From: Squalus acanthias
Lineage: Eukaryota
DNA: 64,000 bases
Assembly: GCA_030390025.1 (NCBI GenBank)
Contig: JASTWF010000034.1
Coordinates: forward strand, 3,782,001 to 3,846,000
Direction: 5' to 3'
In this document: piece by piece, positions 17,781-60,569 of the stretch
How the letters are laid out: every line of letters starts with the position of its first letter
Position numbering within the stretch: position 1 is the first letter of the stretch
Program-made: the position numbers and the translations under genes
The notes under the pieces: model-generated
Told to the model about the DNA's origin: nothing
The model's input: only the letters and a program-made list of their open reading frames with translations
The model's database searches: none

Positions 17781-18099
17781 TATTCAAATGATTTATTAAG
17801 TGTCAATGATTGAAAACGCATTATAATGGTCATAATGATTTATAAACGGTTATAAAAGATCTGTAAGGTGGTGTATTGATTTTAAAGGTTTATAATGACT
17901 AATAAATTCCTTGTGCCGGGCCATCTCCTCCCCAGGCTGGGCTGCTCGGGGTCCTGTGGGCTGGGCTGGGCCGTGCTGTTCCGCCTCGCCGCCCGCACTC
18001 ACAGTAACCGGGACTCCAACTGCTCCCGCCATCCGGACACTCGCCTCCCGCCGCCAGGGAAAGACCCAGAGTGACTGCCGCAATCCGTGTGCGGAACCC

Positions 18100-18236
18100 A
18101 AAGCCGCAATCTTTGTGCGGGGCCCCAGAGCCGCCATCTTTGTGCTGGACCCCGGATCCGCCATCTTTGTGCGGATCCCCAGAGCCGCCATCTTTGTGCG
18201 GGGCCCCAGAGCTGCCATCTTTGTGCGGGGGGCCAC
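18100..18236 (-). repeat. 27-bp GC-rich tandem repeat carrying the AAGATGGCGG (YY1-type) motif, 5 copies
   Basis: GCCGCCATCTTTGTGCGGGGCCCCAGA units just downstream of the GPCR stop. Confidence 0.85.
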
Positions 18237-18290: not shown

Positions 18291-19192
18291 TCATCCTTTA
18301 ATGAATTTTACAATCAGAGTAAAGGGATATTTCCCCAAATTCTTCAACTGCTCTCTGAACTTAGTCTGGGTCACGGCATAAATCCCAGTGTTTGTGCAGC
18401 AACTCAGCAGCTGCAGCATGAATCCCAGTTCCATTACATAATACGGTAGATTTACAGACCGATACCCCAAATACCACATCCGGCTCCATATAGAATACAC
18501 CATAAACACTGCCCATAACAGGATGAAATTGCCGGAGATAACAAGCAGTAAAATGATGGATTTCCTGCGGCTCTCCATCTCTGGGTCTCTGGGACTCTCC
18601 CCACTGCTGGGACCCCGGAGTCTCCTGCGGGCTCTGCTGGCCACTAAAATGTGTCTGACGGTGACAGCATTGAGCAGCAGAATCACCACAAATGGGACAC
18701 ACGGGGTGAGAATATAATGAAGGAGCTCGATTGTTGTCCAGACCCGTGACAACCGAACATCCTCTGTGACATCACAAAACCAGGGGATGTTCTGAAGCCA
18801 ATACCGATCTGTGAACATAAAATACCAGGGGATGTTCTTTAAACCGCTCAGCACAGTCACTGTTCCCAGAACCACAGCCGCCGTTTTCTCGGTGCAATAT
18901 TTAGTTTTCAGCTTCTGGCAACAAATGGCCACAAATCGATCAAAGGTGAAAGTGACGGTGAACCAGACAGAACAGTCTGTGGCTGCGAACAGCAGGACGG
19001 CGTGGATATTACACACGGGGATGGAGTCCACGAAATAAAACTGTTCACTATAAACAATGGGAATGTGCCTCAATATCAGGTCGAGGATAACGACCAGTAG
19101 ATCCGCCGCTGCCATGGCCACCAGGTAGCGAGTGACACATTTGGAGAGACCGCACTTTCCCCGAGACAGGATCACAATCGTCACTAAGTTCA
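18291..19192 (-). CDS. Orphan class A GPCR (GPR139/GPR142-like), coding exon 2 (end of TM1 to C-terminus)
   Basis: Open frame with YLVAMAAADLL (TM2), TFDRFVAIC (DRY-like), ECL2 cysteine, CCTNTGIY (NPxxY-like); polypyrimidine tract and cacAG acceptor at 19194-19193; phase 1. Confidence 0.9.
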
Positions 19193-23910: not shown

Positions 23911-24494
23911 TAGCAGTTAATGTGTGCAAGGTGTGGGATGTGGATGTGTGTTTTATGAAATGGCCATAGGTTTGAATGAGTGTTGGGCATTTGGGTTTGT
24001 GAACCCTCTGGGCAAAGAGTGAAGTTGAGATGGAGGGATGTCGAGGTTTGGAAAAGCAGGTACTCACCCTGACCGCCCGAGTGAGCTCGTTGAACTTCTT
24101 CTGACATTGGGTGTGGGTCCTGGGCACCAGGCCCCTCGGGGAGATGTGCTGAGCCACCTCCCTCCACACTCTTCTAAACTCCCGGGGCAATGGCCTCCTG
24201 TGCCTCACAGGGAACAACACTGCCCATCGCCGTTCCACAGCGCCAACAAGAGCCACCAAAGCCTTGTCGCTCAAGCCACGAGCTCTTTCTCTGGGCCTCT
24301 CCATTATTTTGAATTAATAACTGGACATTGATCCTTACTAGGAACGCCGAGAGCAGTGAGGAGGGGATAGTACATATTTTGTATATCATAACATATTCCT
24401 AATATCCTAAACACTTCTCCCCAATCTATGCCTTCGCTTCTGTGAGTGTCTGGTGGTCTTTGTGCTGGGGGCAGCGCGCTGACTGTGTGAGGTG

Positions 24495-25634: not shown

Positions 25635-25935
25635 TACAGAGCATGTGTGTAAACGCACGAAGCGTGGTCAATAAGGTGGGTGAGCTGCAGGCGCAAATAG
25701 CCACATAGGAAAATGATGTCGTGACGATAACAGAGACCTGGCTCAAAAAGGGTAGGATTGGGTAATAAATATACCTGGATATAAGATGTTCGGGAAAGAT
25801 AGGGAAGGAAAAAAAGGAGGTGGATTAGCAATATTGATTAAGGAGAATATTAGTGCTGGAGAAAGAGGATGTCTTCGAGGGGTCAAGGACAGAATCTATT
25901 TGGTTAGAGTTAAGAAACAATAGAGGTACCATTAC
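25635..25935 (+). mobile_element. CR1 ORF2 endonuclease N-terminal fragment
   Basis: Encodes NARSVVNK...ITETWL...IPGYKMF.KDREGKKGGG. Confidence 0.8.
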
Positions 25936-26632
25936 ACTGCTCCCTCCTCAATCCAGGAATGTGATTCCCAGGGCTGCCTAGATTACACTGCTCCCTCCTC
26001 AATCCAGGAATGTGATTCCCAGGGCCGCCTAGATTACACTGCTCCCGCCTCAATCCAGGAATTTCACTCCCAGGCACAGCCTAGATTACACTGCTCCCAC
26101 CTCAATCCAGGAATTTAATTCCCGGGAGAGTCTAGATTACACTGCTCCTGCCTCAGTCCAGGAATTTCATTCCCAGGGCCGCCTAGATTACACTGTTCCC
26201 ACCTCAGTCCAGGAATTTCATCCCCGGGACAGACTAGATTACACTGCTCCCACCTCAGTCTAGGAATTTCATTCCCAGGACTGCCTAGATTACACTGCTC
26301 CCACCTCAATCCAGGAATTTAATTCCCAGGACAGCCTAGATTACACTGCTCCCACCTCAGTCCAGGAATTTCATCCCCGGGACAGACTAGATTACACTGC
26401 TCCCACCTCAATCCAGGAATTTCATTCCCAGGACAGACTAGATTACACTGCTCCCACCTCAGTCTAGGAATTTCATTCCCAGGGCTGCCTAGATTACACT
26501 GCTCCCACCTCAGTCCAGGAATTTCATTCCCAGGGCTGCCTAGATTACACTGCTCCCACCTCAGTCCAGGAATGTGATTCCCAGGGCCGCCTAGATTACA
26601 CTGCTCCCACCTCAGTTTAGGAATTTCATTCT
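25931..26632. repeat. 51-bp minisatellite (CTAGATTACACTGCTCCCACCTCAGTCCAGGAATTTCATTCCCAGGGCTGC)n
   Basis: About 14 copies. Confidence 0.92.
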
Positions 26633-26854
26633 CAGTTCATTTCTCTTTTGCCTGAAAATGGAAGAAGAAGAAGAAGAAGAAGAGTGACCTTACCCAGACA
26701 AACATGTCATCGTGTTTGACCGAGGGGAAGAATAATTAAAAGGAGCAAAGGATTAAAACGAAGGGATAAAAGGAAAAACACTTAAAATATTAACCAATGA
26801 GATAAATACGCTGTAAGCACCTCAATACTCCAGGAAACTCTCTGGAAACATTAA

Positions 26855-41820: not shown

Positions 41821-42023
41821 AAATGACAAACAGTAATACAGTGAAACGTGATTTACAGATCTAATTTCTGGATATAGAGAGACTTACCAGGGACACCAAC
41901 AGCAGCAAAGAATGAAGAATAGTAATACAGTTAGCAAAGGTTTGCAGGGTTAATAGCTGGATAGAGAGACTTACCAGAACAACAATCGCAACAAGGAGGG
42001 GAGAGTAAATGACAAGAACAGTA

Positions 42024-42455: not shown

Positions 42456-42678
42456 CAGGAACACCAACAGCAGCAAGGAGCGGATAGTAAATGTATTGAA
42501 TAATCTCAAGTGCAAACCGTATCCGAATGTCTAATGATAGTCTATCATAAAGTGCTGAAAGAACGTAAATATCCCATCTGAAACTCTTGCCCATTGTTGC
42601 AGCATTCCAATCTACTGTTCTCAGATTCTGATCCATTGTTGTAACATTCCAATCTACTGTTCTCAGATTCCGACCCAT
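42456..42678 (-). CDS. GPR139/142-like GPCR coding exon 1 (N-terminus and most of TM1)
   Basis: MGRNLRTVDWNVTTM...LEIIQYIYYPLLAAVGVP-G|GTAAGT; the phase-1 donor joins exon 2 at 19192 to give YYPLLAAVGVPVNLVTIVIL, a complete TM1; ~374-aa product across a ~23.3-kb intron; start ATG uncertain (three in-frame ATGs). Confidence 0.82.
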
Positions 42679-42989
42679 TGTTGTAACATTCCAATCTACT
42701 GTTCTCAGATTCCGACTCCCTCTCTGTGGAGCAGCGCGCTGATCCCTGTCAGTGCCGGAGGCGATGCTCTCACTGACACTATGGATAACACATTGAAAGG
42801 AGTCCCTTATTAATAGAAGAGGGAAACCCTGCACTGATACAATTAGGGTCAATGGGGACTTACATTAATTACAGTCACTAAACAAACATCTTCAGTTAAC
42901 CCGTGGAGACTGACATTAATTACAGTCACTGAACAAACAGCTTCAGTTAACCCCTTTCAATCCAACACTTTTTATACCACAGTAAAGTA

Positions 42990-45745
42990 GAACATTTACC
43001 CGGTCCGGATGGGATGTATGAGGATTGCTGAGGGAAGGAATGGTGGAAATAGCGCAGGCTCTGGCCAGAATATTTCAATCCTCCTCGGATATGGGAGTGC
43101 TGCCAGCGGACTGGAGGGTTGCAAATGTTACACCCTGTTTAAAAAAGGAGAGAGGGATAAACCCTGTAACTGCAGGCCAGTCAGAATAACGTCAGTGGTA
43201 TGGAAACGTCTAGAGGCCTTATTCACAGAGAAAAGTATCTGTCTTTGGAAAAAATATGGATTAATAAATGACAACCAGCACGGATATGTTAACGGCAAAG
43301 TGTGTCTGACAAACTTGATTAAATTCTTTGATGAAGTAACGGAAATGGTTGATGAGGGTAGTGTGGTTGAGGTTGTGTATAGGGACATTAAAATGCATTT
43401 CATGAAGTACAATGGAATAGACTTGTTAGGACCAAAGGAACAGTGGCAGTGGGGATCTGACATTGGCTAAGGGACAGAAAACCGGGAGTAGTGGTGAACG
43501 GTTGTTGTTCAGACTGGAGGGAAGTGTACAGTGGTGTCCCCAAATGTCGCTATTCGGACAACTGCTCTTTTTGATACATATTAATGATATAGACATATAT
43601 ATATATAGACATGTATATACATGTACATATATACACACACACACAGAGCGGGATAAGGTAGGCTTCAGGAGTATATAGACAGACTGGTGAAATGAGCAAA
43701 GTGATGAAAGGTGCCATCGACAGTGCTATTGTGTGGCACTTACTCACTAATAACCTTCGCACCGATGCCCAGTTTGAGTTCCGCCAGGACCACTCGGCTC
43801 CAGACCTCATTACAGCCTTGGTCCAAACATGGACAAAGGAGCTGAATTTCAGTGGTGAGGTGAGAGTGACTGCACTTGACATCACGGCAGCATTGGACTG
43901 AGTGGGTCATCAAGGAGACCCAGGAAAATTGTGGTCAATAGAAAGCAGGGGGAAAACTCTCCACTGGCTCAAGTCATACCCGGCACAACGGAAGATGGTT
44001 GTGTTTTTGGAGGTCAATCATCACAGCCCCAGGACATCGCTGCATGAGTACATCAGGGCAGTGTCCTCGGCCCAACCATCTTCAGCTACGTCATCAATGA
44101 CCTTCCATCCATCAAAAGGTCAGAAATGGGGATGTTCACTGATGACTGCACAGTGTTCAGCGCCATTCACAACTCCATAGATAATGAAGCAGTCCATGCC
44201 CGCATGCAGCAAGACCTGGACGACGTTCAGGCTTGGTCTGATAAGTGGCAGCAATAACTATCTCCAACAAGAGCCACATCCCCTTGACATTAAATGGGAT
44301 TAGCATCGCCAAATCCGCCATCATCAATATCCTGTGTGTCACCATTGACCAGAACCTTAACTGGACCAACCAGATAAATACTGTGGCTGACAGAGAAGGT
44401 CAAGGCTGGGTACTCTGCGGCGAGTGTCTCACCTCCTGAGCCCCCAAAGCCTTTCCACCATCTACACGGCACAAGTCAGGAGTGTGATGGAATACTCTCC
44501 ACTTGCCTGGATGAATGCAGCTCCAATAACACACAAGAAGCTCGAAATCGTCCAGGATAAAGCAGCCCACTTGATTGGTACCCCATCCACCACATTAAAA
44601 ATTCCCTCCCTCCACCAGCGGTGCACCGTGGCTGCAGTGTGTATCATGTACAAGTTGCACTGCAGCAACTCGCTAAGGCTTCTTCAGCAGCACCGTCCAA
44701 TCCTGCGGCCTCTACCACCTAGAAGGACAAGGACAGCAGGAGCATGGGAACACCACCACCTGTAAGTTTCGCTCCAAGTCACACACCATCCTGACCCGGA
44801 AATATATCGTTGTTCCTTCATTGTCGCTGTGTCAAAATCCTGCAACTCCCTCAGTAACAGCACTGTGGCAGTACCTTCACCTGACGGACTGCAGCTGTTC
44901 AAGTCGGCGGCTCACCAGCACCTTCTCAAGGGCAATTAGGAATGGGTAATAAATACTGGTCGTGCCAGCGATGGCCACATTCCATAAATAAATAAAAAAG
45001 AAAAAAAGGACAAATGGAAGGGGAAATTCCATAAATTCCATAGATTCTAGAACGGTTCCCGCGGATTGGAATGTCTCAAATCTAACACCACTGTTTTAGA
45101 AAGGAGGGAGAGAGAAAACGGGGAACTACAGACCCGTTAACCAGACATCAGTAGTAGGGAAAATGCTTGAATATATTATTAAGGACGCGGTAACAGGGCA
45201 CTTAGAAAATTATAATAGGATTGGGCAGAGTCAACACGGATTTATGAAAGGGAAATTGTGTTTGACAACTCTGTAAGAGTTTTTGGAGATTGTAACGAGC
45301 AGAATAGATAAGGGGGAGCCAATAGATGTGGTGGATTTGGATTTTCAGAAGGTATTCGATAAGGTGTCACACAAGAGGTTATTAAACAAAATTAGGGTTC
45401 ATGGGATTAGGGGTAATATACTCGCATTGGTTGAGGATTGGTTAACGGACAGAAAACAGAGAGTTGCAATAAACGCGTCATTTTCGAGTTGGCAGGTTGT
45501 AACTATTGGGGTACCGTAAGAATCAGTGACTGGGCATCAGCTATTCACAATCCGCATCAATGATTTGGATGAGGGGACCAAAAGTAATATATCCAAGTCT
45601 GCTGATGATACAAAGCTGGGTGGCAATGTAAGTTGTGAGGACGATGCAAGGAGGCTTCAATTAGATAAAGACAGGCTAAGTGAGTGGGCAAGAACATTGC
45701 AAATGGAATATAACGTGGAGAAATGTGAAGTTGATATCTGGTGAT
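42990..45745 (+). mobile_element. Degenerate CR1 fragments (42990-43697, 45010-45745) with a nested L2/Crack-type LINE (43695-45008) ending in an A-rich tail
   Basis: QFEFRQDHSAPDLITAL...ALDI, YTAQVRSVMEYSPLAW; the CR1 text resumes after the A-tail. Confidence 0.8.
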
Positions 45746-46119
45746 GTCCGCAGACACGGGCCGAGAAATTTGTCTCAGGCGGTGGGTTAAACGAGCAATA
45801 TCGGATCGGGCGCCCGTTTCACGCAGCGCCTGAGATTCAGTTCCACTGCAGTCAATGACGGATTTCTAGGCCTAGAGCTTCAATCCTTCACACTATTTTT
45901 CCAGCAAAGGTTTCTCCGTAACTCAGTGAAGCCTCTTCAGTGTCAAAGAACTAGTGTCAGTAATCCTGCACCATCAACACCACTGTGGTCCAAAAATCCA
46001 TGGTCCCCTGTTTAAAAAAAAACTCCATTCTGGTTCTTAATTGTATAACATGTAATGAGCAGCTAAACAAGAGGGCAGAGCCACAGTCAGTGACACCGAA
46101 ACATTCACACAGGCTGCTT

Positions 46120-46365
46120 AAAGAGACAGGACCAGTCACACAGGCTGTTTAAATAGACAGGACCAGTCACACGGGCTATTTGAAGGGACATAACCAGTCA
46201 GACAGGCTTTTTAAAGAGACAAGACCAGTCAGACAGGATTTTTAAAGAGACAGGACCAGTCAGACAGGCTTTTTAAAGAGACAGAACCAGTCACACAGGC
46301 TATTTGAAGAGACAGGATCAGTCAGACAGGTTTTTAAATAGACAGGACAAGTCACACAGGCTTTC
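46120..46365. repeat. ~30-bp minisatellite (AGACAGGACCAGTCACACAGGCTATTTAAAG-like)
   Basis: About 8 copies; lies at the inner boundary of the right duplication arm. Confidence 0.85.
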
Positions 46366-46379
46366 AAAACAGAAAGGAC

Positions 46380-48030
46380 AGGAAGCCTATCTTCTCAGTA
46401 AGGGGATAGAATCGGTGTCCTATGGGCCAATCACGGACGGCCCTTGAAGTGGCAACATTGTGCGCCTCCCTTCCACGTTGTTGCTGCTGATTCTCCTCTT
46501 CATCCTCCTCCTCCTCCTCTCCCTCCTCTCCCTCTTCTTCCTCCTCCTCTCCCTCTTCCTCCTCCTCCTCAAGTGGTGCACCAATCCCTGGTGGCAATGG
46601 TTGGGCCCCCATGATTGCAATGTTATGAAGCATGCAGCACACAACAATGAAGAGGGAGACACGCTCGAGAGAGTACTGCAGGACTCCTCCTGAGTGGTCC
46701 AAACACCGGAACCGTTGTTTCAAGACACCGATCGTGTGTTCAATGAGGTTCCTGGTGGAGCTATGGCTGTAGTTGTATTGCAGCTCGGCAGGGGTGTTGG
46801 GGTTATGGAGCGGAGTCATCAGTCAGGTGCAGAGTGGGTAACCCTTGTCCCCGAGGAGCCATCCACTAGGTTTACACCGTGTTTGGAAGAGGTCTGCGAC
46901 TCCGGTCTGGCACAGGATATAAGTATCGTGGTTGCTGCCATGATAGCGGGCATTGACGGCAAGTATGAGCTGTCTGTGGTCACACACCAACTGGACATTC
47001 AGAGAGTGGGAGCCCTTTTGATTTCGGACTACCTCTGCATTCTCATGAGTTGCCCACATTGCCACATGCGTGCAGTCAAAGGCGCTCTGAATCATGGGGA
47101 AGCACATTCTCCTTGCAAAGCTGCGCATTCGCGTTGTTTGTCCTGGGTCATGGAGAAAGATGTACTGGCGTCTCCGCTTATACAAAGCCTTTGTCACCTT
47201 CCGGATGCAACAATGAACAGCGAACTGGGAGATATTCACTATGTCCCCAGTAGAAGCCTGAAAGGAACCGCTGACTTAGAAATTTAGATCCACTGTCACC
47301 TTCACTGCCACCGACAGAGACGTCCTGGTACTGAGCTGAGGCTGCAGATCTGATTGCAGGAGATGGCAGAGCTCAGTGACAAATGATAAATCATTATAGG
47401 AGGAGAATTGCTCCCTGAATACCCTGGGAGGGTAAGGTCTCCTGTGCAGAGGCCTGTTGGCCCTCCTCCCTCTGGCAAGATATGCCACTCTCTCTGCGTC
47501 TCTGCTGCCTCCGAAGGTGAAGCTGGACGTCGAAGATGCCCCGAGTTAGTACAGCCCCCATCGAAGCATCTATATATATCGTTAGAAGGTATGTGAAAAA
47601 GAAATGAACTCCAAAGTCGTGCTCCGGACCCAAAACTCTTTCGGTCAGCGTCGAATCTCTCCAGACGTCTGACTCCCTCTCAAAACATTTCGCAGACAAG
47701 AAAAGGCAGGAAGCGGCCGCCTTTAAATAGCGCTCCCTTCCCGACTTGAAAACATTTCCCTTTAATGTGTCATTCCTAGTGGCAGGCGCTAAGGCAGGAG
47801 GTGCGACTCAATATCCGGTCCAGGACGCTATCGGGGCATTGCATGCTCGCATTAAGTCACGATCTGCGGGCTCAGGAGATTGTGGTGCTCGTCTTTTGCG
47901 CTAGCGCAAAACGACGTCAATTTCGCGAGCGGCGCTAAAATAGCCGCGCTCGGTTGCTCAGTATCGAGCGCCCCGTTAGTGCCTCCAAAGGCGCTGAAGG
48001 GCAGCGTTAACCAACCGACTTTCCACCCTC
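46380..48030 (-). mobile_element. Decayed Harbinger (frameshifted transposase pseudogene ~47560-46410), same insertion site as the 20864 copy
   Basis: ORFs 47276-47488, 46823-47239 (AFDCTH, LLGDKGYP) and 46364-46819 (EHTIGVLKQRFRCL); shared flank CACAGATAA.CAT. Confidence 0.88.
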
Positions 48031-49665
48031 ATGTTTATCTGTGTTTTCCACTTTGTCGTTCCCCATAGCATCCGCGCTGCTGTCAGATATTGATTCTGAA
48101 TGTGGTATTGTGTTACCAAGATTCAAATGTTCGAAATTCAACTCCAGCAAATTTATTGGAGGTGACTTTTTATTCAACGAATTTCAGTCTGCTACCTACA
48201 CTGAACATTTATATCAGATCAGAAGAATGCTGTCTTGGTTTAGGAGACTTTTCACCTAATGGTGAAAGGACATCGACCTGAAACGTTAACTCTGTTTCTC
48301 TCTCTCTCCACAGATGCTGCCTGACCCGCTGAGTATTTCCATCATTTTCTGTTTTCATTTCAGATTTCCAGTATCCGCAGTATTTTACTTTTGTTTTCAC
48401 CTAATGCTCGGTATGGATACTTACAGAGTCACAGGAACAAATCCTGGCAGATCACATCCACATCTTTAAATGTCTGAAATATCCGCTAATCATTCAGTTC
48501 CAGTCAATGTCTCCTTTCCCACCCTCTCCAGTTCTGCATTATTGGCACTGCTTCTGATGGTTAAAGTAGGATTACAAGGATAATTTGCATTCTCACAAAA
48601 CGTTCATTCAGCCAGATTTCAAAACATTTCTAGCTGATCCATGTTTTGAATTTGCAATTGGATCCCATGCCCGTCTGTCACAGTACAGTGGATCTGTCAG
48701 TGAGACCCAGAGTGATTCTCTATTGCCTCCTGCTGTACTTCAGGATAAACAATCCCAGCTGATTGTAACTGAAGTACTGAGGATAAGAAAATTCTTTGAT
48801 ATCTTCTCGTCCAATATTCTCTGCACATTTTGGAAGCAACATGTGAAAAAGTACAAGGATAAATCTCTTCCATTTGTGTTCAGATACTTTACAACAGCAT
48901 TCGGCGGCACTTTGCCTGTGGGTTAAGTCGTCTGATTTCGATGCTGATAAATCCATTTAGTGGGACATTACCTGGTCAATCATCACTATTTACTTTAATT
49001 CAGAATCCATTATTTGCAATGTTACTTGGCAAATCTTCCTTTCAATGAGGTAGAATTTGTGTATTTCAACAAAAATGCAGAAAACTCAATCTTCAAAACA
49101 TATCTGATAGCCCAGTTATCTTTATAACTGCAGTGCACTTGTATTTATTATCTTAGCATTGTCGTATTACATCCGTACATTTTACATACAATTGCCTATA
49201 ATTATTGCATGCCAAGGTCGCAGTTTCTGTATTTTGCTGTTGCATTCATTTTCAGTTCTAAATAGAATTGATATTCTAACCAAGAGCAGGAAACCAAGCG
49301 GGATTTCCCCCTCATTAACATAGTTGCGCAGAAGGCTTCCTGACAGGGTCTGGTCCTTTGTGTCCCTGGTACCTCGGGCGGTGCCTTTGTCTGCTGGGCT
49401 AAATTTAGATCGATCATTTAATCTCTCCTTGATCAAACATCTGTTACTTTCATATTGTATGTATTCCCATTTCATTTGTTGATTCCACAATGTATTCCCG
49501 ATTATTCTTACAATAAGCCCTGTATTCTGCTCCACAGGTAATAGGATTAGATTATATCGTTGAATGTCGCTCGTGAGTTGCAGATTTCACCCCGAATTCC
49601 CTCAAACTGCTGCTTTTGCTCCCAGCCTGATGAACAATTTCCCTGTTTATTTCCCTTCCTCACAG

Positions 49666-50567
49666 TTAACTTAGTGACGATTGTGATCCTGTCTCGGGGA
49701 AAGTGCGGTCTCTCCAAATGTGTCACTCGCTACCTGGTGGCCATGGCAACGGCGGATCTACTGGTCGTTATCCTCGACCTGATATTGAGACACATTCCGA
49801 TTGTTTATAGTGAACAGTATTATTTCGTGCAGTCCATCCCCGTGTGTAATATTCACGCCGACCTGCTGTTCCCAGCCACAGACTGTTCTGTCTGGTTCAC
49901 CGTCACTTTCACCTTTGATAGATTTGCGGCCATTTGTTGCCAGAAGCTGAAAACTAAATATTGCACCGAGAAAACGGCGGCTGTGTTTCTGGGAACAGTG
50001 ACTGTGCTGAGCAGTTTAAAGGACATCACCTGGTATTTTATGTTTACAGATCAGTATATGCTTGGGAACGAGCCCTGGTTTTGTGATGTCACAGAGGGTG
50101 TTACAAAGTCACGGGTCTGGGGACCAATTGAGCTCCTTCATTATATTCTCACCCCGTGTGTCCCATTTGTGGTGATTGTGCTGCTCAATGCTGTCACCGT
50201 TAGACACATTTTAGTGGCCAGCAGAGCCCGCAGGAGACTCCGGGGTCCCAGCAGTGGGGAGAGTCCCAGAGACCCAGAGATGGAGAGCCGCAGGAAATCC
50301 ATCATTTTACTGCTTGTTATCTCCGGCAATTTCATCCTGTTATGGGCAGTGTTTATGGTGTTTTCTATATGGACCCGGATGTGGTTTTTGGGGTATCTGT
50401 CTGTAATTCTACCTCTTTATGTAATGGAACTGGGATTCATGCTGCAGCTGCTGAGTTGCTGCACAAACACTGGGATTTATGCCGTGACCCAGACTAAGTT
50501 CAGAGAGCAGTTGAAGAATGTGGGGAAATATCTCTTTACACTGATTGTAAAATTCATTAAAGGATGA
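49666..50567 (+). CDS. Second GPR139/142-like GPCR exon 2 (open frame, no plus-strand exon 1 seen)
   Basis: cacAG acceptor at 49664-49665; 299 codons align without gaps to the minus copy with 28 substitutions by my count. Confidence 0.8.
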
Positions 50568-50629
50568 GAAGAAACGGAGACTTTGCAGTCCAAGATTTGG
50601 CAGTTCCCTGGGCCGCATATTGTGGCGTC

Positions 50630-50893
50630 CCGCACAAAGATGGCGGCACCGGGGCGCAGCACAAAGATGGCGGCTCCGCGGCCCCGCACAAAGATGGCGG
50701 TTCCGGGGCCCCGCAAAAAGATGGCGGATCCGGGGCCCTGTATAAATATGGCGGCTCCGGGGCCCTGCACAAAGATGGCGGCTCTGGGTCCCCGCCCAAA
50801 AATGGCGGCTCCGAGACCCAGCACAAAGATGGCGGCTCTGTTGCCCGGCACAAAGATGGTGGCACTGGGGCCCCGCACAAAGATGACGGCTCT
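50630..50893 (+). repeat. 27-bp GC-rich tandem repeat with the AAGATGGCGG (YY1-type) motif, 10 copies
   Basis: (CACAAAGATGGCGGCTCCGGGGCCCCG)n starting ~65 bp after the GPCR stop. Confidence 0.88.
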
Positions 50894-54995: not shown

Positions 54996-56300
54996 ATAGA
55001 GTGAAGGGGTATATCAGAGTGGTACAGTAAGGGATGTGTGGTGTATATCAGAGTGTTATAGTCAGGGGAGTGGGTTTACATCAAAGTGCTACAGTGAGGG
55101 GTGTGGGGTACATCCGGTTTATACAATGAGGGGTGTGGTGCATAACAGAGTGCTATAGTGAGGGGTGCGGGGTACAGCACAGTAATACAATGAGCGGTGT
55201 TGTGTATAACAGAGTGTTACAGTGAGAGATGTGGTGTATAACAGAGTATTACAATCAGGGCTGTGGGTTTATGTGAGTGTTTTACATTGATGGGTGTCGG
55301 GTATATCAGAGTGTTACAGCGAGGGGTATGGAGTATATCAGAGAGTGTTACAGTGAGGGGCTTGGAGTAAAACGGTGTGCTGCAATGAGAGGTTTAATCA
55401 CAGAAGAATGTAAGAAATAGGAGCAGGAGTAGGCCATTCGGCCCCTTGAGCCTGCTCCGCCATTCAATGAGATCATGGCTGATTTTCTCCCTCAATTCCA
55501 TTCACCGGCCTTATCTCGATATCCCTTGATGCCCTTACTAGTCAGAAATCTATCGACTTCTGTTTTGAATATTCCCAATGACTGAATCTCCACAGCCCTC
55601 TGGGGTAGAGAATTCGAAAGATTCACCACCCTGTGAAGAAATGTCTTTATTAGAGTTAGATATATTTCTTAAGGCTAAGGGGATGAAGGGATATGGGGAG
55701 AAAGCAGGGACAGGGTACTGAATTTGGATGATCAGCCATGATTGCATTGAATGGCGGAGCAGGCTCGAGGGGCCGAAAGGCCTACTCCTGCTCAAATCTT
55801 CTATGTTTCTATGGGGCAAAAATTCAGTTGGTTGCGCCTCCCGTTAGCGCCTTAAGAGGGCGCTAATGGGACGCAAAGCCGCTAGCGCCCGGGCGCAGCG
55901 ATGTTTGCGCCGCTCGGGAACTTAACTAAACATTGTGCGGCGGCGTTAAACTTTACCGCTGCGACCACCTGCGCGCGCAGATTGTGACGTCATTCCATGG
56001 TGCAACGCCCTTGTGGCGCCCCGGAGCAGAAATTGAGTGGCGCCCCCTGCCTTACCGCCTGGCGCATCCAACGACCGGAAGACTGGAACGCTATCAATCG
56101 CTGTGGGGCTGGGGGGGCGCTATTTAAAGGGGGCCTCTTCCTGTCTTTTTCTGTGGTTGACATTTTTGCACCACTCGTTCTGAGAGAGAAAGAGAGACTT
56201 CTGCATTGAGTCAACGCTTTGTGAGGTAATTTTGCCTACTGATCCTAACTTCGCTGGTACTTTGGTTGCTGTCCTTCATAACTTTGCTTGCAAAGAGACT

Positions 56301-57461
56301 ATGGGGGCTGCACTGAATGTGGGCGTTGTCCTGCTCCAGCTGAATCGGAGGACACATAGACGCAGAGAGAGAGTGGCAATGATGGCCAGACGGAGGAGGG
56401 CCAACTGGCGTCTGTACAGGAGAGCTTACCCTCCCAGGGTATATCCTGAACAGCTCTCCTACATTCATTTGTCTGAGGAGTTGTGTTTGCAATGGCTGCG
56501 ATTCAGCAAGGAGGTGGTCACTGAGCTCTGCCACCTGCTGCAGCCAGATCTGCAGCCTCAACTGAGGTCCAGGACGTCTCTGACGGTAGCAGTGAAGGTC
56601 ACAGTGGCTCTCAAGTTCTATGCTACTGGCTCATTTCAAGCTGCTGCTGGGGACCTCCCCAATATCTCCCAGTTCGCGGTGCATTGCTGCATCCGGCAGG
56701 TCACAAATGCCCTCTTTAAAAGGAGACGAGAGTTCATCTCTTTCCCCATGACCCCAGACAAGCAACGTGACCGCGCTCTGGGCTTTGCGAGGATAGCGGG
56801 CTTCCCCATGGTGCAGGGCGCCATTGACTGCACGCATGTGGCTTTGCGTGCTCCACATGAGAATGCCGAGGATTTCCGGAACAGAAAGGGGTTCCATTCC
56901 TTGAATGTTCAGTTGGTCTGTGACCACAGACAGCTGATACTCGCTGTCAATGCCCACTATCCTGGCAGCTGCCACGATGCTTTCATCCTGCGCCAGACTA
57001 CTGTGGCAGAACTTTTCGAGGCACCGCATCAGCCAGTTGGTTGGCTTCTCGGGGACAAGGGGTATCCATTGAGCACCTGGCTGATGACACCGCTCCGTAC
57101 GCCCAACACCCCTGCTGAGCTGCGGTACAACGAGAGCCATCAAGCTACCAGGAACATCATTGAGCGCACAATCGGCGTGCTGAAGCAACGGTTCCGCTGT
57201 CTCGACCATTCAGGAGGAGCCCTGCAGTACTCGCCTGAGCGAGTATCCAACTTCGTAGTTGTGTGCTGCATGTTGCATAACATGGCAATCGTCAGGACCC
57301 AGCCAATGCCACCAGGCCTTGGAGCACCACCAGAGGAGGAGGAGGAAGAGGAGGAAGAGGACGAGGAGGATGATCATCAGCAGCACCAAGGCGGGAGGGC
57401 GGCCCACAATGGTGAAACTGCAAGGGCCGTCCGTCAACGGCTGATAGCAAGCCGCTTCTAG
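56301..57461 (+). CDS. Harbinger DDE transposase (HARBI1-like), 386 aa, uninterrupted
   Basis: ATG at 56301; HTH region, GAIDCTH, NRKGFHSLNVQLVCD, PGSCHDAFIL, LLGDKGYP, RNIIERTIGVLKQRFRCL, CCMLHN; acidic tail; AATAAA downstream. Confidence 0.93.
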   Translation: MGAALNVGVVLLQLNRRTHRRRERVAMMARRRRANWRLYRRAYPPRVYPEQLSYIHLSEELCLQWLRFSKEVVTELCHLLQPDLQPQLRSRTSLTVAVKVTVALKFYATGSFQAAAGDLPNISQFAVHCCIRQVTNALFKRRREFISFPMTPDKQRDRALGFARIAGFPMVQGAIDCTHVALRAPHENAEDFRNRKGFHSLNVQLVCDHRQLILAVNAHYPGSCHDAFILRQTTVAELFEAPHQPVGWLLGDKGYPLSTWLMTPLRTPNTPAELRYNESHQATRNIIERTIGVLKQRFRCLDHSGGALQYSPERVSNFVVVCCMLHNMAIVRTQPMPPGLGAPPEEEEEEEEEDEEDDHQQHQGGRAAHNGETARAVRQRLIASRF

Positions 57462-58003
57462 GGCCTCTGCTGTGGAAATGGCTTCTGCCATTGCTAACAA
57501 CATCAATGAACCCAGCACGCAACCCCTAAGCCGGCCAAGGCACCAATGATTCCAAACACCAAACATGTATATTTTGAATACAAAAACGTATTTATTTTAC
57601 AAACTCTGTGTGTGTCATTTCCTCATGACAAACTCATAGAAATAAACACAAAAAAACAGTCATTAACATAACTGGTTCTCACAACCTGGAGATAATGTCC
57701 AAAACACTAAACAAAAGTTGGACCACGAACCTCGGCCTTTAATAAAAAAATGACCAGCATTTTGTCACACCTCCTACTTTTTGCCCTTCGAGGGTGATCT
57801 CCTTCCCTTGCGCACTTCCCCCCTTCTAACCCTACTGCTCCTCCGTAATGGGACCTCAGTGGCTGCAGCAAGGCTGGTGTAAGGCTGCTGATTGTCAGAC
57901 CCTGACACTGCAGATGCCCCTGAAGGACGGCCTCGACCAGTTCTGGGCCTGGAGGGCCCGGCTGCAGACTGCACCAACTCTGCATGGGCGGCAGCAGTCT
58001 GTC

Positions 58004-58731
58004 CTACAGGCGGTGGCAAGTGCAGTGGAGAAGTGACAGTGTTGGCAGCAGGAATGCTGTCATCGTGAGAGAGGAAAGCAACTCCCTGCTCGCCCGACAC
58101 ACTGGCACTCCCACGGGGCAGCACTTCAGCATCCGGAGCAATCTGCTGGAGCACAATCTGTGGGAGCCCCGGGGACCTGTGAACGAACCATCGAGGTTGG
58201 CAGCAGTCAGTGCTCGCGTGGCCTCAATCTGAGTCTGCATGAGAGCAGTCAGAGATGGGATCACGGCAGTCAGTGACTGAATTGCAGCACTAAGCTTTAG
58301 TGTGGCATCCGCCTGTGCTACAGCGAAGTGCTCCACACTCCTTGCCAGTGACTCAATGCATTCGGGCACCCTTCCCACTGCACCCATGAGCTCAGTGTGC
58401 ATGCACACCGCCTGCGTGTTCATTTCTGCGATCAGCCGCTCCTCCTCTGCGTCCATTGCAGTAGGAGTCGCTGGCATACTCTCCCTCTGGGGAGAAGGCC
58501 CCCGTTCTTCCCTACCCCCATGGCGTTGCTGCAGCCCGCTGGGTCCTGGAGCTTCACCCTCATCAGACCCTTCCCCCCTGCTCCCCTCCAGGGAAGGCGT
58601 GTTCCCAGTGTGGGCATGGGCTTCCTCGGGAGAGGGTGGCACTGATGCTCCGGCTTCCTCTTCCTCCTCGGCTGCAGCTTCACTCCCACTGGCAGCTTCA
58701 GGGCCCGTCTCCTCAGCTGGTGAATCACCAT
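58004..58731 (-). CDS. Harbinger Myb/SANT-like protein, exon 3 (acidic linker and coiled coil; true end may be 57774 via a frameshift)
   Basis: tgctttcAG acceptor; the phase-1 join gives DGDSPAEE...VPPSPEEAH in frame with ORF 58004-58642; spliced product ~375 aa. Confidence 0.7.
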
Positions 58732-58890
58732 CTGAAAGCAGGGAGGTACAAGAGTGACTTTAGCGTGTGGACAGGGTGGCAGTAAGGGAGGAATAAGTGC
58801 AGCGAGTTAGCAAGTTGGATTGAAAGTGTCAAAGGCTGGTGTTGTGAGGGACAAGTGGAAGGACAGAGGACAAAAAGGTGATGACCTTAC

Positions 58891-59053
58891 CATTGCTGTC
58901 AAGAACGGGGTCGGCGTCTCCAGTGGCGACGGGCCCGATCACCCGGCTTGCCACAATCCTGTGGACGCGCTCCTCAAGATCGCTGAGAGGTTGCAGCTGA
59001 GGCCGCCCTCCACCTGTCCGTTGCTGCTGTCTCCTATTATGCGCCAGCTTGGC
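58891..59053 (-). CDS. Harbinger Myb/SANT-like protein, exon 2
   Basis: ttttcttgcAG|AKLAHNRRQQQRTGGGRPQLQPLSDLEERV...|GTAAGG; the TGGG motif follows the trihelix in this family. Confidence 0.82.
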
Positions 59054-59283
59054 CTGCAAGAAAAAGGACAGCGTCTGAGTAAATATACAGCCATGGTCTT
59101 GCCTGATGTGCCTCCCAAAGGTGAATAGCCCTTACTGTATGCAAAGTGTGGAATGTGTGTGTGTGTTTCATGAAAGGGCCATAGGTGTTGGATGAGTGTT
59201 GTGCATTGGGGTTTTAAGACCCTCTGGCCATAGAGTGAGGTTGAGATGGAGGGATGGAGAAGTATTGAGAAAAAGCCACTCAC

Positions 59284-59520
59284 CCGGACGACCCGAGTGA
59301 GGTCGTTGAACTTTTTGCGGCATTGAACATGGGTCCTGGGCACCATGCTCCTGGAGGAGACGCTCTGAGCCACCTCCCTCCACACTCTTCTGTACTCTCG
59401 TGGCAAAGGCCTCCTGCCACTCTCAGGGAAGATTATAGATCTTCTGCGCTCCACCGCGCCAACCAGAGCATCCAAGGCCCGCTCGGTGAGGCGCTGAGCT
59501 CGTTCTCTCACCCTCTCCAT
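59284..59520 (-). CDS. Harbinger Myb/SANT-like DNA-binding protein, exon 1
   Basis: MERVRERAQRLTERALDALV...VWREVAQSVSSRSMVPRTHVQCRKKFNDLTRVVR|GTGAGT (trihelix/MADF-like pattern), phase 0. Confidence 0.85.
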
Positions 59521-60569
59521 CCTTGGCAGCAAAATGGATTCACAGGTCTCTCCAGGCCGAGATTCAAGGCTGCAACGAGCAGGGTGTGGCTGGGGAGCAA
59601 GTTGGCCCCCCCGCTTTAAGAACTGGCCGGCGCCAGTGTGTCTGTGTTCCCTCGCTAACTGGCAGCACCTGCGCTGTGCTCGCACGCTGAGTTAGCGCCT
59701 CACTGCTCGGCCTTTGCGCCTTAAGACAGGTGTGCAGCGCCTGATTTAGCACTCCACTCACCTCCCGGGGCGGTAAAAGTGCAGTTTCCAATCAGTGGCG
59801 ATAATTAGCACCAGGCACTAATTTTTGCGTCCAGACGATATTTGTGCCCCAAACGGGGCGCGACCTAATTTTTCCCCCTATGTTTCTATGCATCTCATCT
59901 CAGTCCTGAAAGGCCTACCCTTTATCATAAGTCTGTGGCCCCTGGTTCTAGACTCCCCAGCCAAGGGAAACATTCTCCCAGCATCCAACCTATCAAGCCC
60001 AGTAATAATTTTTAATGCTTCAATAAGATCCCCACTCATTCTTCTGATTTAAAGAGAATACAGGCCTAGTTCACTCAATCTCTTCTCATATGACTGTCCC
60101 GCCTTCCCAGGAATCAATCTCGTGAACCTTCGTTGCACTCCCTCTATGGCAAGTATATCCTTCCTTAGGTAAGGAGACCGAAATTGTACACAGTACCCCA
60201 GATGTGGTATCACCAAGGCCTATATAAAGGGAGTAAGACTTCTTTACTCCTGTACTCAAATCCTCTTGTAATGAAGGCCAGCACACGATTTGCCTTCCTT
60301 GGGGTATGTAAGAGAGTGTTATAATCAGGAGTGTGGGGTATATCAGAGTTTACAGTGAGGGGTGTGGTTTAGATCAGAGTGTTATAGTGAGGGGTGTGGG
60401 GTATATCAGATTATTATAGTGATTGGTGTGGAGTACATCAGAGTGTTACAGTGAGTGGTGTGGGGTATATCAGCGTATTGCAGTGAGGTGTGTGAGTTAT
60501 TTCAGAGTGTCACAGGTATGGGTGTGAGGTATATCAGTGGGTTACAGTGAGGGGTGTGGGGTACAGCCC

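Follow-up and report, generated by a model that had tools for sequence, protein, structure and literature searches.

The question raised by this locus is why two copies of one receptor exon, lying on opposite strands of the same stretch of Squalus acanthias DNA, differ from each other mainly in the parts of the protein that would face the outside of the cell. The answer depends on what kind of receptor the exons encode, on how many relatives they have and where those relatives vary, and on whether selection, recombination, or decay best accounts for the differences between the two copies.

Two receptor exons and their gene structure

The window, by which we mean the whole stretch of 64,000 nucleotides, is animal DNA with an abundance of LINE, Harbinger, and satellite repeats, and its closest protein relatives are in sharks. 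By tblastn it contains exactly two receptor exon copies, designated A and B (Table 1). Both match Pfam 7tm_1 (E = 1.1e-20 for copy A and 3e-17 for copy B), the scores of the two copies being 63.4 and 74.7 bits against a cut-off of 30.5. An AlphaFold2 model of copy A (pLDDT, 90.4) has seven helices, and all 50 matches listed in a fold search with this model were class A receptors. The class A motif residues D30 (2.50), C60 (3.25), C139 (45.50), R85 (3.50), P166 (5.50), W226 (6.48), and Y271 (7.53) are each present in 116 to 117 of 117 shark paralogs; P6.50 is absent from the shark family. The 7tm_1 scores above cut-off, the predicted seven-helix fold, and the motif residues place the family in class A (rhodopsin-like) of the GPCRs. 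No membership in the OR, TAAR, V1R, V2R, T1R, or T2R families was found for A or B, which matched Pfam 7tm_1 only.

Table 1. Positions of receptor exons, variable segments, and repeats within the window
Feature	Position	Strand	Details
Copy A exon 2	18291..19192	-	299 whole codons; phase-1 acceptor
Copy B exon 2	49666..50567	+	Mid-TM1 to stop; 299 whole codons; phase 1; acceptor AG at 49664-49665
Exon 1a	42456..42678	-	Typical first coding exon; E = 3.2e-30; 74 codons plus 1 base; first half of TM1; GTAAG donor
Exon 1b, weaker short-type candidate	24339..24408	-	E = 8e-5; GTAAG donor; in phase with A
Duplicated segment (intron end, exon 2, 3' flank)	47488..50782	+	Inverted copy at 21419-18077
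ECL1 hypervariable positions 48, 49, 52, 55	49809..49832	+	A/B difference at 55; rare B residue at 51
B-only V65D and A69P within TM3	49860..49874	+	Each in 0/117 relatives
ECL2 to TM5 top	50052..50126	+	Hypervariable 129, 131, 133, 135; near-invariant 130, 134, 136; Cys139; then 140-147, 152, 153
TM6 top, ECL3, TM7 top	50361..50426	+	Hypervariable 232, 236, 239, 240, 244, 247, 250, 253, in helical spacing
27-bp GC-rich tandem array just after stop codon	50629..50892	+	Also after copy A, 18077-18230
Intact-looking Harbinger element	55811-59691		425-residue transposase frame on +; Pfam DDE_Tnp_4, E = 6e-41

Both copies are exon 2 of a two-exon gene and start in the middle of TM1 after a phase-1 acceptor. 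Both strands of the window were searched for the missing part with an HMM profile of 66 family first exons. Exon 1a is in phase with exon 2 of copy A and lies on the wrong strand for copy B, while exon 1b stands 5.1 kb upstream of exon 2 of copy A and has its sole in-frame ATG just before the YYP motif. On the plus strand of the window this profile found no match better than E = 3.3. Judged by its sequence, copy A can form a whole receptor of 74 + 1 + 299 residues with exon 1a, and it looks intact. Among the matches listed in two runs guessed to be RNA, neither a spliced transcript nor a loose end of exon 1 was found, and the contigs continue through the intron, a result that speaks neither for nor against expression.

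The start of exon 1a consists of three 42-nt repeats (42590-42716, minus strand) that encode 14-residue units, two of them with an N-x-T sequon and probably glycosylated. The number of these units varies widely among family members, which gives the N terminus a variable length. Two degenerate copies of the end of exon 1, together with its GTAAG donor, lie at 41830-42011 on the minus strand, ~450 to 600 bases into the intron after exon 1a.

The two second exons align without gaps over 299 codons, with 47 nucleotide differences, 28 amino acid differences, and 9 purely synonymous codons; the intron part of the duplicated segment has 82 differences in 1515 aligned sites (5.4%). The initial annotation had counted the same 28 changes and had placed 12 of them within 38 residues, which we locate at residues 116 to 153 (best-window permutation P = 0.0013; 100,000 permutations). 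Six differences that it assigned to the end of TM6 and ECL3 are found in residues 232 to 250, and the codon changes that it described as involving several bases correspond to eight changed codons differing at two or three bases. Two of its statements needed revision. Four changes were attributed to ECL1 and the top of TM3; they exist, at residues 51, 55, 65, and 69, but V65D and A69P sit inside TM3, at conserved positions off the variable face. Likewise, ICL1 and ICL3 are identical in the two copies as stated, but TM7 is not, its top carrying Y250L.

With receptor regions set from Ballesteros-Weinstein anchors and checked against the AlphaFold2 model of copy A, differences occupy 22 of the 119 residues of the extracellular half versus 6 of the 180 residues of the inner half (Fisher P = 2e-5). 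The three loops themselves hold nine of the 28 if the helix limits of the predicted model are used, or 12 by Ballesteros-Weinstein limits; the remaining extracellular differences are at the outer helix ends.

An elasmobranch receptor family and its relation to GPR139

Searched against protein sequences, copy A matched 2659 clusters (90% identity) at E ≤ 1e-3, among 4407 candidates, and copy B matched 515 clusters at E ≤ 1e-100, among 3856 candidates. The best 120 of the 2659 clusters are all named "probable" or "putative G-protein coupled receptor 139" and come from five shark species; among these 120 listed clusters the horn shark has 54 rows and, by hand count, at least 156 member sequences. 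Ten clusters that were opened in full (107 proteins) proved each to be from a single species, and more divergent members come from other sharks, one skate, and two rays. The summed depth of the DNA contigs, which is not a copy number, drops from ~40,000 in conserved stretches to ~1,000 to 1,700 at the three loops.

The nearest relatives outside the elasmobranchs are a receptor of amphibians and sturgeon and a receptor of coelacanth, teleosts, and frogs. In a 40-row tree, rooted at the midpoint and with no true GPR139 or GPR142 among its rows, the 29 elasmobranch and window rows group together in a single clade (97/87), and this clade is sister to that of amphibians and sturgeon (96/90). The multi-copy expansion seen in elasmobranchs is lineage specific, as against one cluster for each named amphibian species (20 of 25 matches). 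The suggestion that these genes belong to an expanded family rather than being single-copy GPR139 is borne out by the numbers of clusters and by the comparison with GPR139 below, and the two window sequences are recent paralogs within this shark and ray expansion of two-exon class A GPCRs, distant relatives of GPR139 and GPR142. The unnamed GPR139-related receptor of amphibians and sturgeon (P0242 and P0280-P0299) has Lys at 6.51 and a very conserved ECL3; as the sister of the shark expansion, it is a candidate for revealing the ancestral ligand.

The best solved-structure match by sequence is human GPR139 (PDB 7vug; E = 3e-10), with 23% identity over 292 columns, and GPR139 ranks 16 in the fold search. 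By the one sequence alignment on which the pairing of residues rests, F/Y3.33, H5.42/5x43, and W6.48 of the shark family align with the GPR139 agonist-site residues F109, H187, and W241, N271 (7x38) of GPR139 aligns with shark F257 (F or Y in the family), and E108 aligns with L67. The accessible portion of one study gives F109, H187, W241, and N271 as the four residues needed for GPR139 activation (PMC5430874). P7.50 is missing from both the shark family and GPR139, whereas the shark family has C3.25 and C45.50 and GPR139 has no cysteine aligned at 3.25. R244 (6x51) is described, in the available text of another study, as occurring only in GPR139 and GPR142 and as critical there (PMC8807744). 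At this position 115 of the 117 shark proteins have F, L, or Y (F in 60, L in 44, and Y in 11), while Lys is found in 20 of 20 amphibian sequences and Arg in coelacanth and teleost. The shark family is also multi-copy, with hundreds of clusters, where a single copy is expected of GPR139 or GPR142. With 23% identity, the loss of Arg6.51, and the mismatch at N271 (N7x38), the label "GPR139" does not hold as a statement of orthology, and true GPR139 identity was ruled out.

Rather, by sequence the shark family would seem to branch from the wider group around GPR139 and GPR142, to which GPR210A and GPR210B also belong. Rinne et al. (2019, PMC6504862) named these two for related clades in coelacanth and fishes, and sharks have 0 occurrences in the available text of that paper. 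The nearest non-elasmobranch relatives of the shark family are unnamed receptors that may be of this GPR210A/B-like kind; unlike the shark genes, the amphibian-sturgeon and coelacanth-teleost-frog receptors occur once per species and carry K or R at 6.51. Neighbors of the shark receptors in the Atlas are GPR139-like and FMRFamide-receptor-like, and the wider receptor group, as given in the portion available of PMC8514136, includes the protostome FMRFamide, MIP, proctolin, and myosuppressin receptors.

No description of a GPR139-like expansion in sharks and rays was found by full-text search in a mainly open-access literature that included some of the shark genome papers and their supplements; the gene models themselves are already in RefSeq under the automatic name "probable GPR139." Cartilaginous fishes have been credited with a "relative paucity" of GPCRs in the accessible text of PMC8455134, and the whale shark supplements of that paper contain no GPR139 and one GPR142 orthogroup line. 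For the catshark, the accessible part of PMC6368271 reports a chemosensory repertoire of 65 genes, 35 of them V2R, and the parts available of PMC11979771 contain no GPCR in the top-50 olfactory list and no "139" in the main text. This picture of GPCR paucity would be altered by a family to which a single shark species contributes at least 156 listed proteins and in which the variable face is sharply delimited.

Distribution of variation across the family

Variability was scored over 117 shark paralogs chosen by similarity to copy A, many of which may be nonfunctional models; of an initial 120 proteins, 3 (P0001, P0002, and P0030) had been excluded because their models are fused or duplicated in part. 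Mean pairwise distance in this set is 0.522 in the extracellular loops, 0.282 in the outer helices, 0.153 in the inner helices, and 0.196 in the intracellular loops. In 20 single-copy amphibian orthologs the corresponding values are 0.157, 0.133, 0.189, and 0.331. As the order is reversed in the amphibian orthologs, loop variability is not a general property of receptors of this type. The loops hardly differ in length, with 24 residues in ECL2 in 113 of 117 proteins, unlike relaxed loops. The alternation of variable and near-invariant residues in ECL2 and the helical spacing of variable residues around TM6, ECL3, and TM7 suggest one selected surface, not a floppy loop.

The same gradient is found among recent paralogs. 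In the ten clusters opened in full, from which none of the 107 proteins was dropped, the minimum number of changes per site is 0.448 in the extracellular loops, 0.153 in the outer and 0.074 in the inner transmembrane parts, and 0.084 in the intracellular loops. The extracellular loops exceed the intracellular ones in 8 of the 10 clusters, and 2 have no such excess; the representative of each cluster also helped to define the entropy, so that the correlation with entropy is not fully independent. Among 21 near-identical horn shark copies, a few codons, the same ones throughout, toggle among many residues.

Inside this rim lies a conserved polar core of D37, R41, H63, D72, E155, H158, R237, and E254, each found in 105 to 117 of the 117 proteins. 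In generic numbering, the residues constant within the subfamily are D2.57, R2.61, H3.28, D3.37, E5.39, H5.42, W6.48, R6.59, and E7.36, and the variable ones are 5.36-5.37, 6.54, 6.58, 7.32, and 7.35, in addition to the loops. The variable helix positions would line the outer vestibule. In 29 divergent elasmobranch members the core differs between older subfamilies, for example, at 2.61, 3.28, and 3.32.

Selection, recombination, and decay as explanations of the pair

Over the whole exon, dN between A and B is 0.054 and dS is 0.048 by the Nei-Gojobori method (ratio, ~1.1). The initial annotation had proposed diversifying selection on the ligand-binding face. Its observation of an extracellular concentration of change extends to the whole family and is opposite in the single-copy relatives, but the pair itself yields a loop dN/dS of 2.1 (dN, 0.182; dS, 0.086) with a Fisher P of 0.40. 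Measured against the intron as a yardstick (0.054), loop dN is elevated (P = 8e-6 by base and P = 0.012 at one event per codon), and inner-half dN (0.015, with a dS of 0.022) is depressed (P = 1e-4). Adjacent-pair differences number 11 of 47 in coding sequence versus 9 of 82 in the intron, and counts of this kind are raised by mutations that change several bases at once. Synonymous differences at codons for identical amino acids also lean outward, with 6 in 62.7 sites outside versus 3 in 129 inside (P = 0.06). The outer segments may therefore have begun to diverge earlier than the intron did, and the pair alone neither proves positive selection nor excludes conversion.

The family provides a second measure. 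Thirty-seven hypervariable sites were chosen from the family without the use of A or B, and the two copies differ at 17 of them. If these sites had diverged as the intron did, 4.5 differences would be expected (P = 4e-7); the extracellular synonymous rate of 0.096 gives 7.7 (P = 6e-4), and the local ECL2 rate of 0.133 gives 10.4 (P = 0.016); at a neutral divergence of 0.2, 14.9 are expected and the excess is gone (P = 0.29). At the other 262 sites there are 11 differences versus 31 expected. We consider it probable (about 0.68) that the family is a recognition repertoire in which the core stays constant while the outer rim diversifies and is shuffled, in part, by recombination. Positive selection is the putative cause of the rim pattern, and the residues taken to face the pocket are assigned from helix numbering.

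Recombination probably contributes to variation in the family, and the main rival explanation gives it the whole of the A/B pattern: gene conversion or unequal crossover would have imported the outer segments from distant paralogs, or homogenized the inner half, with no selection on the pair. The outward lean of synonymous differences is what such an exchange would leave behind, as are the absence of any A/B difference from codons 179 to 231, the weak correlation of loop-to-loop distances (0.03 to 0.62), and an incompatibility between sites that grows with distance in one of three paralog sets (P = 0.004; others, 0.06 and 0.14). A single conversion tract as the full explanation was ruled out, since the differences form three separate clusters. 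Moreover, just two synonymous differences occur at unchanged codons within 116 to 154, the hypervariable-site excess holds at the local rate, and conversion relocates diversity, leaving unexplained the 37 variable sites that the donors share and the amphibian reversal. We therefore regard conversion as an improbable main cause of the pattern.

Still more doubtful as a general account is relaxed constraint with birth-and-death drift, under which tolerant loops would diverge after segmental duplication near transposons and copy B would be a decaying pseudogene. Whole-gene dN/dS is near 1 and Harbinger and LINE remnants lie in both introns, as such drift would have it. Drift, however, predicts an even spread of changes, and the inner half has accumulated fewer than the intron; nor does it fit the shift of variability between lineages, ICL3 being the loosest part of the amphibian orthologs (distance, 0.39, versus 0.23 in sharks) while ECL3 goes from 0.06 in amphibian orthologs to 0.59 in sharks.

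The part of this explanation that concerns copy B is the stronger one. No first exon is found upstream of it on the plus strand within 49.6 kb of the window, it carries seven rare residues at conserved sites (F51Y, V65D, A69P, V87A, V107F, C116S, and P289L) where copy A has none, and its branch in the tree is 0.14 in length compared with 0 for A. With no first exon on its strand and rare residues at conserved sites, part of the A/B difference may be decay, a possibility that the initial annotation had passed over. On the other side, the reading frame of B is open, its splice acceptor is intact, and seven rare residues are within the range of the family (median, 5; 54 of 117 proteins have six or more). 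At most of the places of these residues, DNA contigs from four runs have the A-type base, and at 49861 and 49872 (V65D and A69P) nearly all of the contig depth does. Exon 1a and exon 2 of copy B stand 7 kb apart on opposite strands (42456-49666), a separation that a local inversion of exon 1a away from B or an error in the assembly could have produced; alternatively, B may have its first exon beyond the ends of the window. On balance, we give slightly better than even odds to copy B being an orphan exon in early decay, an early pseudogene.

Host receptors under pathogen pressure vary at an exposed rim around a conserved core, and the shark family does the same within the subfamily, but the idea that the rim diversifies to escape a binder (a pathogen, parasite, or toxin) while the core keeps one endogenous ligand is the least probable of the three, as escape needs no hundreds of copies and the core itself differs between the older elasmobranch subfamilies.

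If the family is a recognition repertoire, the G-protein face and the deep polar core of the pocket would stay fixed within a subfamily, while some 30 outer-rim positions (ECL1, alternate ECL2 residues, the tops of TM5, TM6, and TM7, and ECL3) would be pushed apart by diversifying selection and the rim variants reshuffled among copies through duplication and recombination. Many receptors would thereby read variants of one ligand class into one signal. Given the constancy of the intracellular side and of R3.50, W6.48, and Y7.53, signaling by every member probably converges on one G-protein pathway. The combination of an unchanging anchor and a variable rim would suit ligands that share one part and differ in another, as peptides do, and the ligands would most likely be peptides or other large molecules from outside the body.

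Lineage-specific expansions of class A GPCRs have been read as chemoreceptors in Lophotrochozoa, according to the available text of PMC11886862, and the shark family resembles the expansions described there in its large clustered paralog sets and in its higher entropy at extracellular helix ends and loops. Unlike chemoreceptor expansions, the shark family has a conserved deep pocket and a variable rim. Other expansions that enter the comparison are the vertebrate OR, TAAR, and V1R receptors and the MRGPR and FPR families. Within the reading as a recognition repertoire, a chemosensory role is the leading candidate, at somewhat less than even odds; an immune role is unlikely, and a reproductive or other role slightly more so. 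At somewhat less than even odds, the family could be an unrecognized receptor system of sharks and rays, vertebrate chemosensory or innate immune in kind, with hundreds of genes per genome, a GPR139-related origin of peptide type, and a recombination-shuffled hypervariable rim, similar to that of antibodies or MHC, for sensing foreign or conspecific peptides. If this is true, it would add to the vertebrate chemosensory or innate immune families one that exceeds in size every shark chemoreceptor family described so far. How sharks, with few known receptors, manage to smell or to sense pathogens could be tested directly on this family.

Several repeats accompany the two genes. The unit of the 27-bp array contains a motif that we take to resemble a YY1 site; a search upstream of the two first exons (1a and 1b) turned up no 26-bp array, and 51-bp arrays lie at 42853-42953 and 25931-26635. 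The segments 44650-44998 and 23906-23561 were considered as a longer duplication and dropped, being a dispersed repeat end with matches elsewhere. The convergent open reading frame on the minus strand of the Harbinger element is presumably the Myb/SANT-type partner of the transposase. Decayed Harbinger copies occupy corresponding positions in the two receptor introns, and the intron after exon 1b enters, within 35 bases (24304-24339, minus strand), the start codon of a remnant of the second Harbinger open reading frame, which matches 59122-59520.
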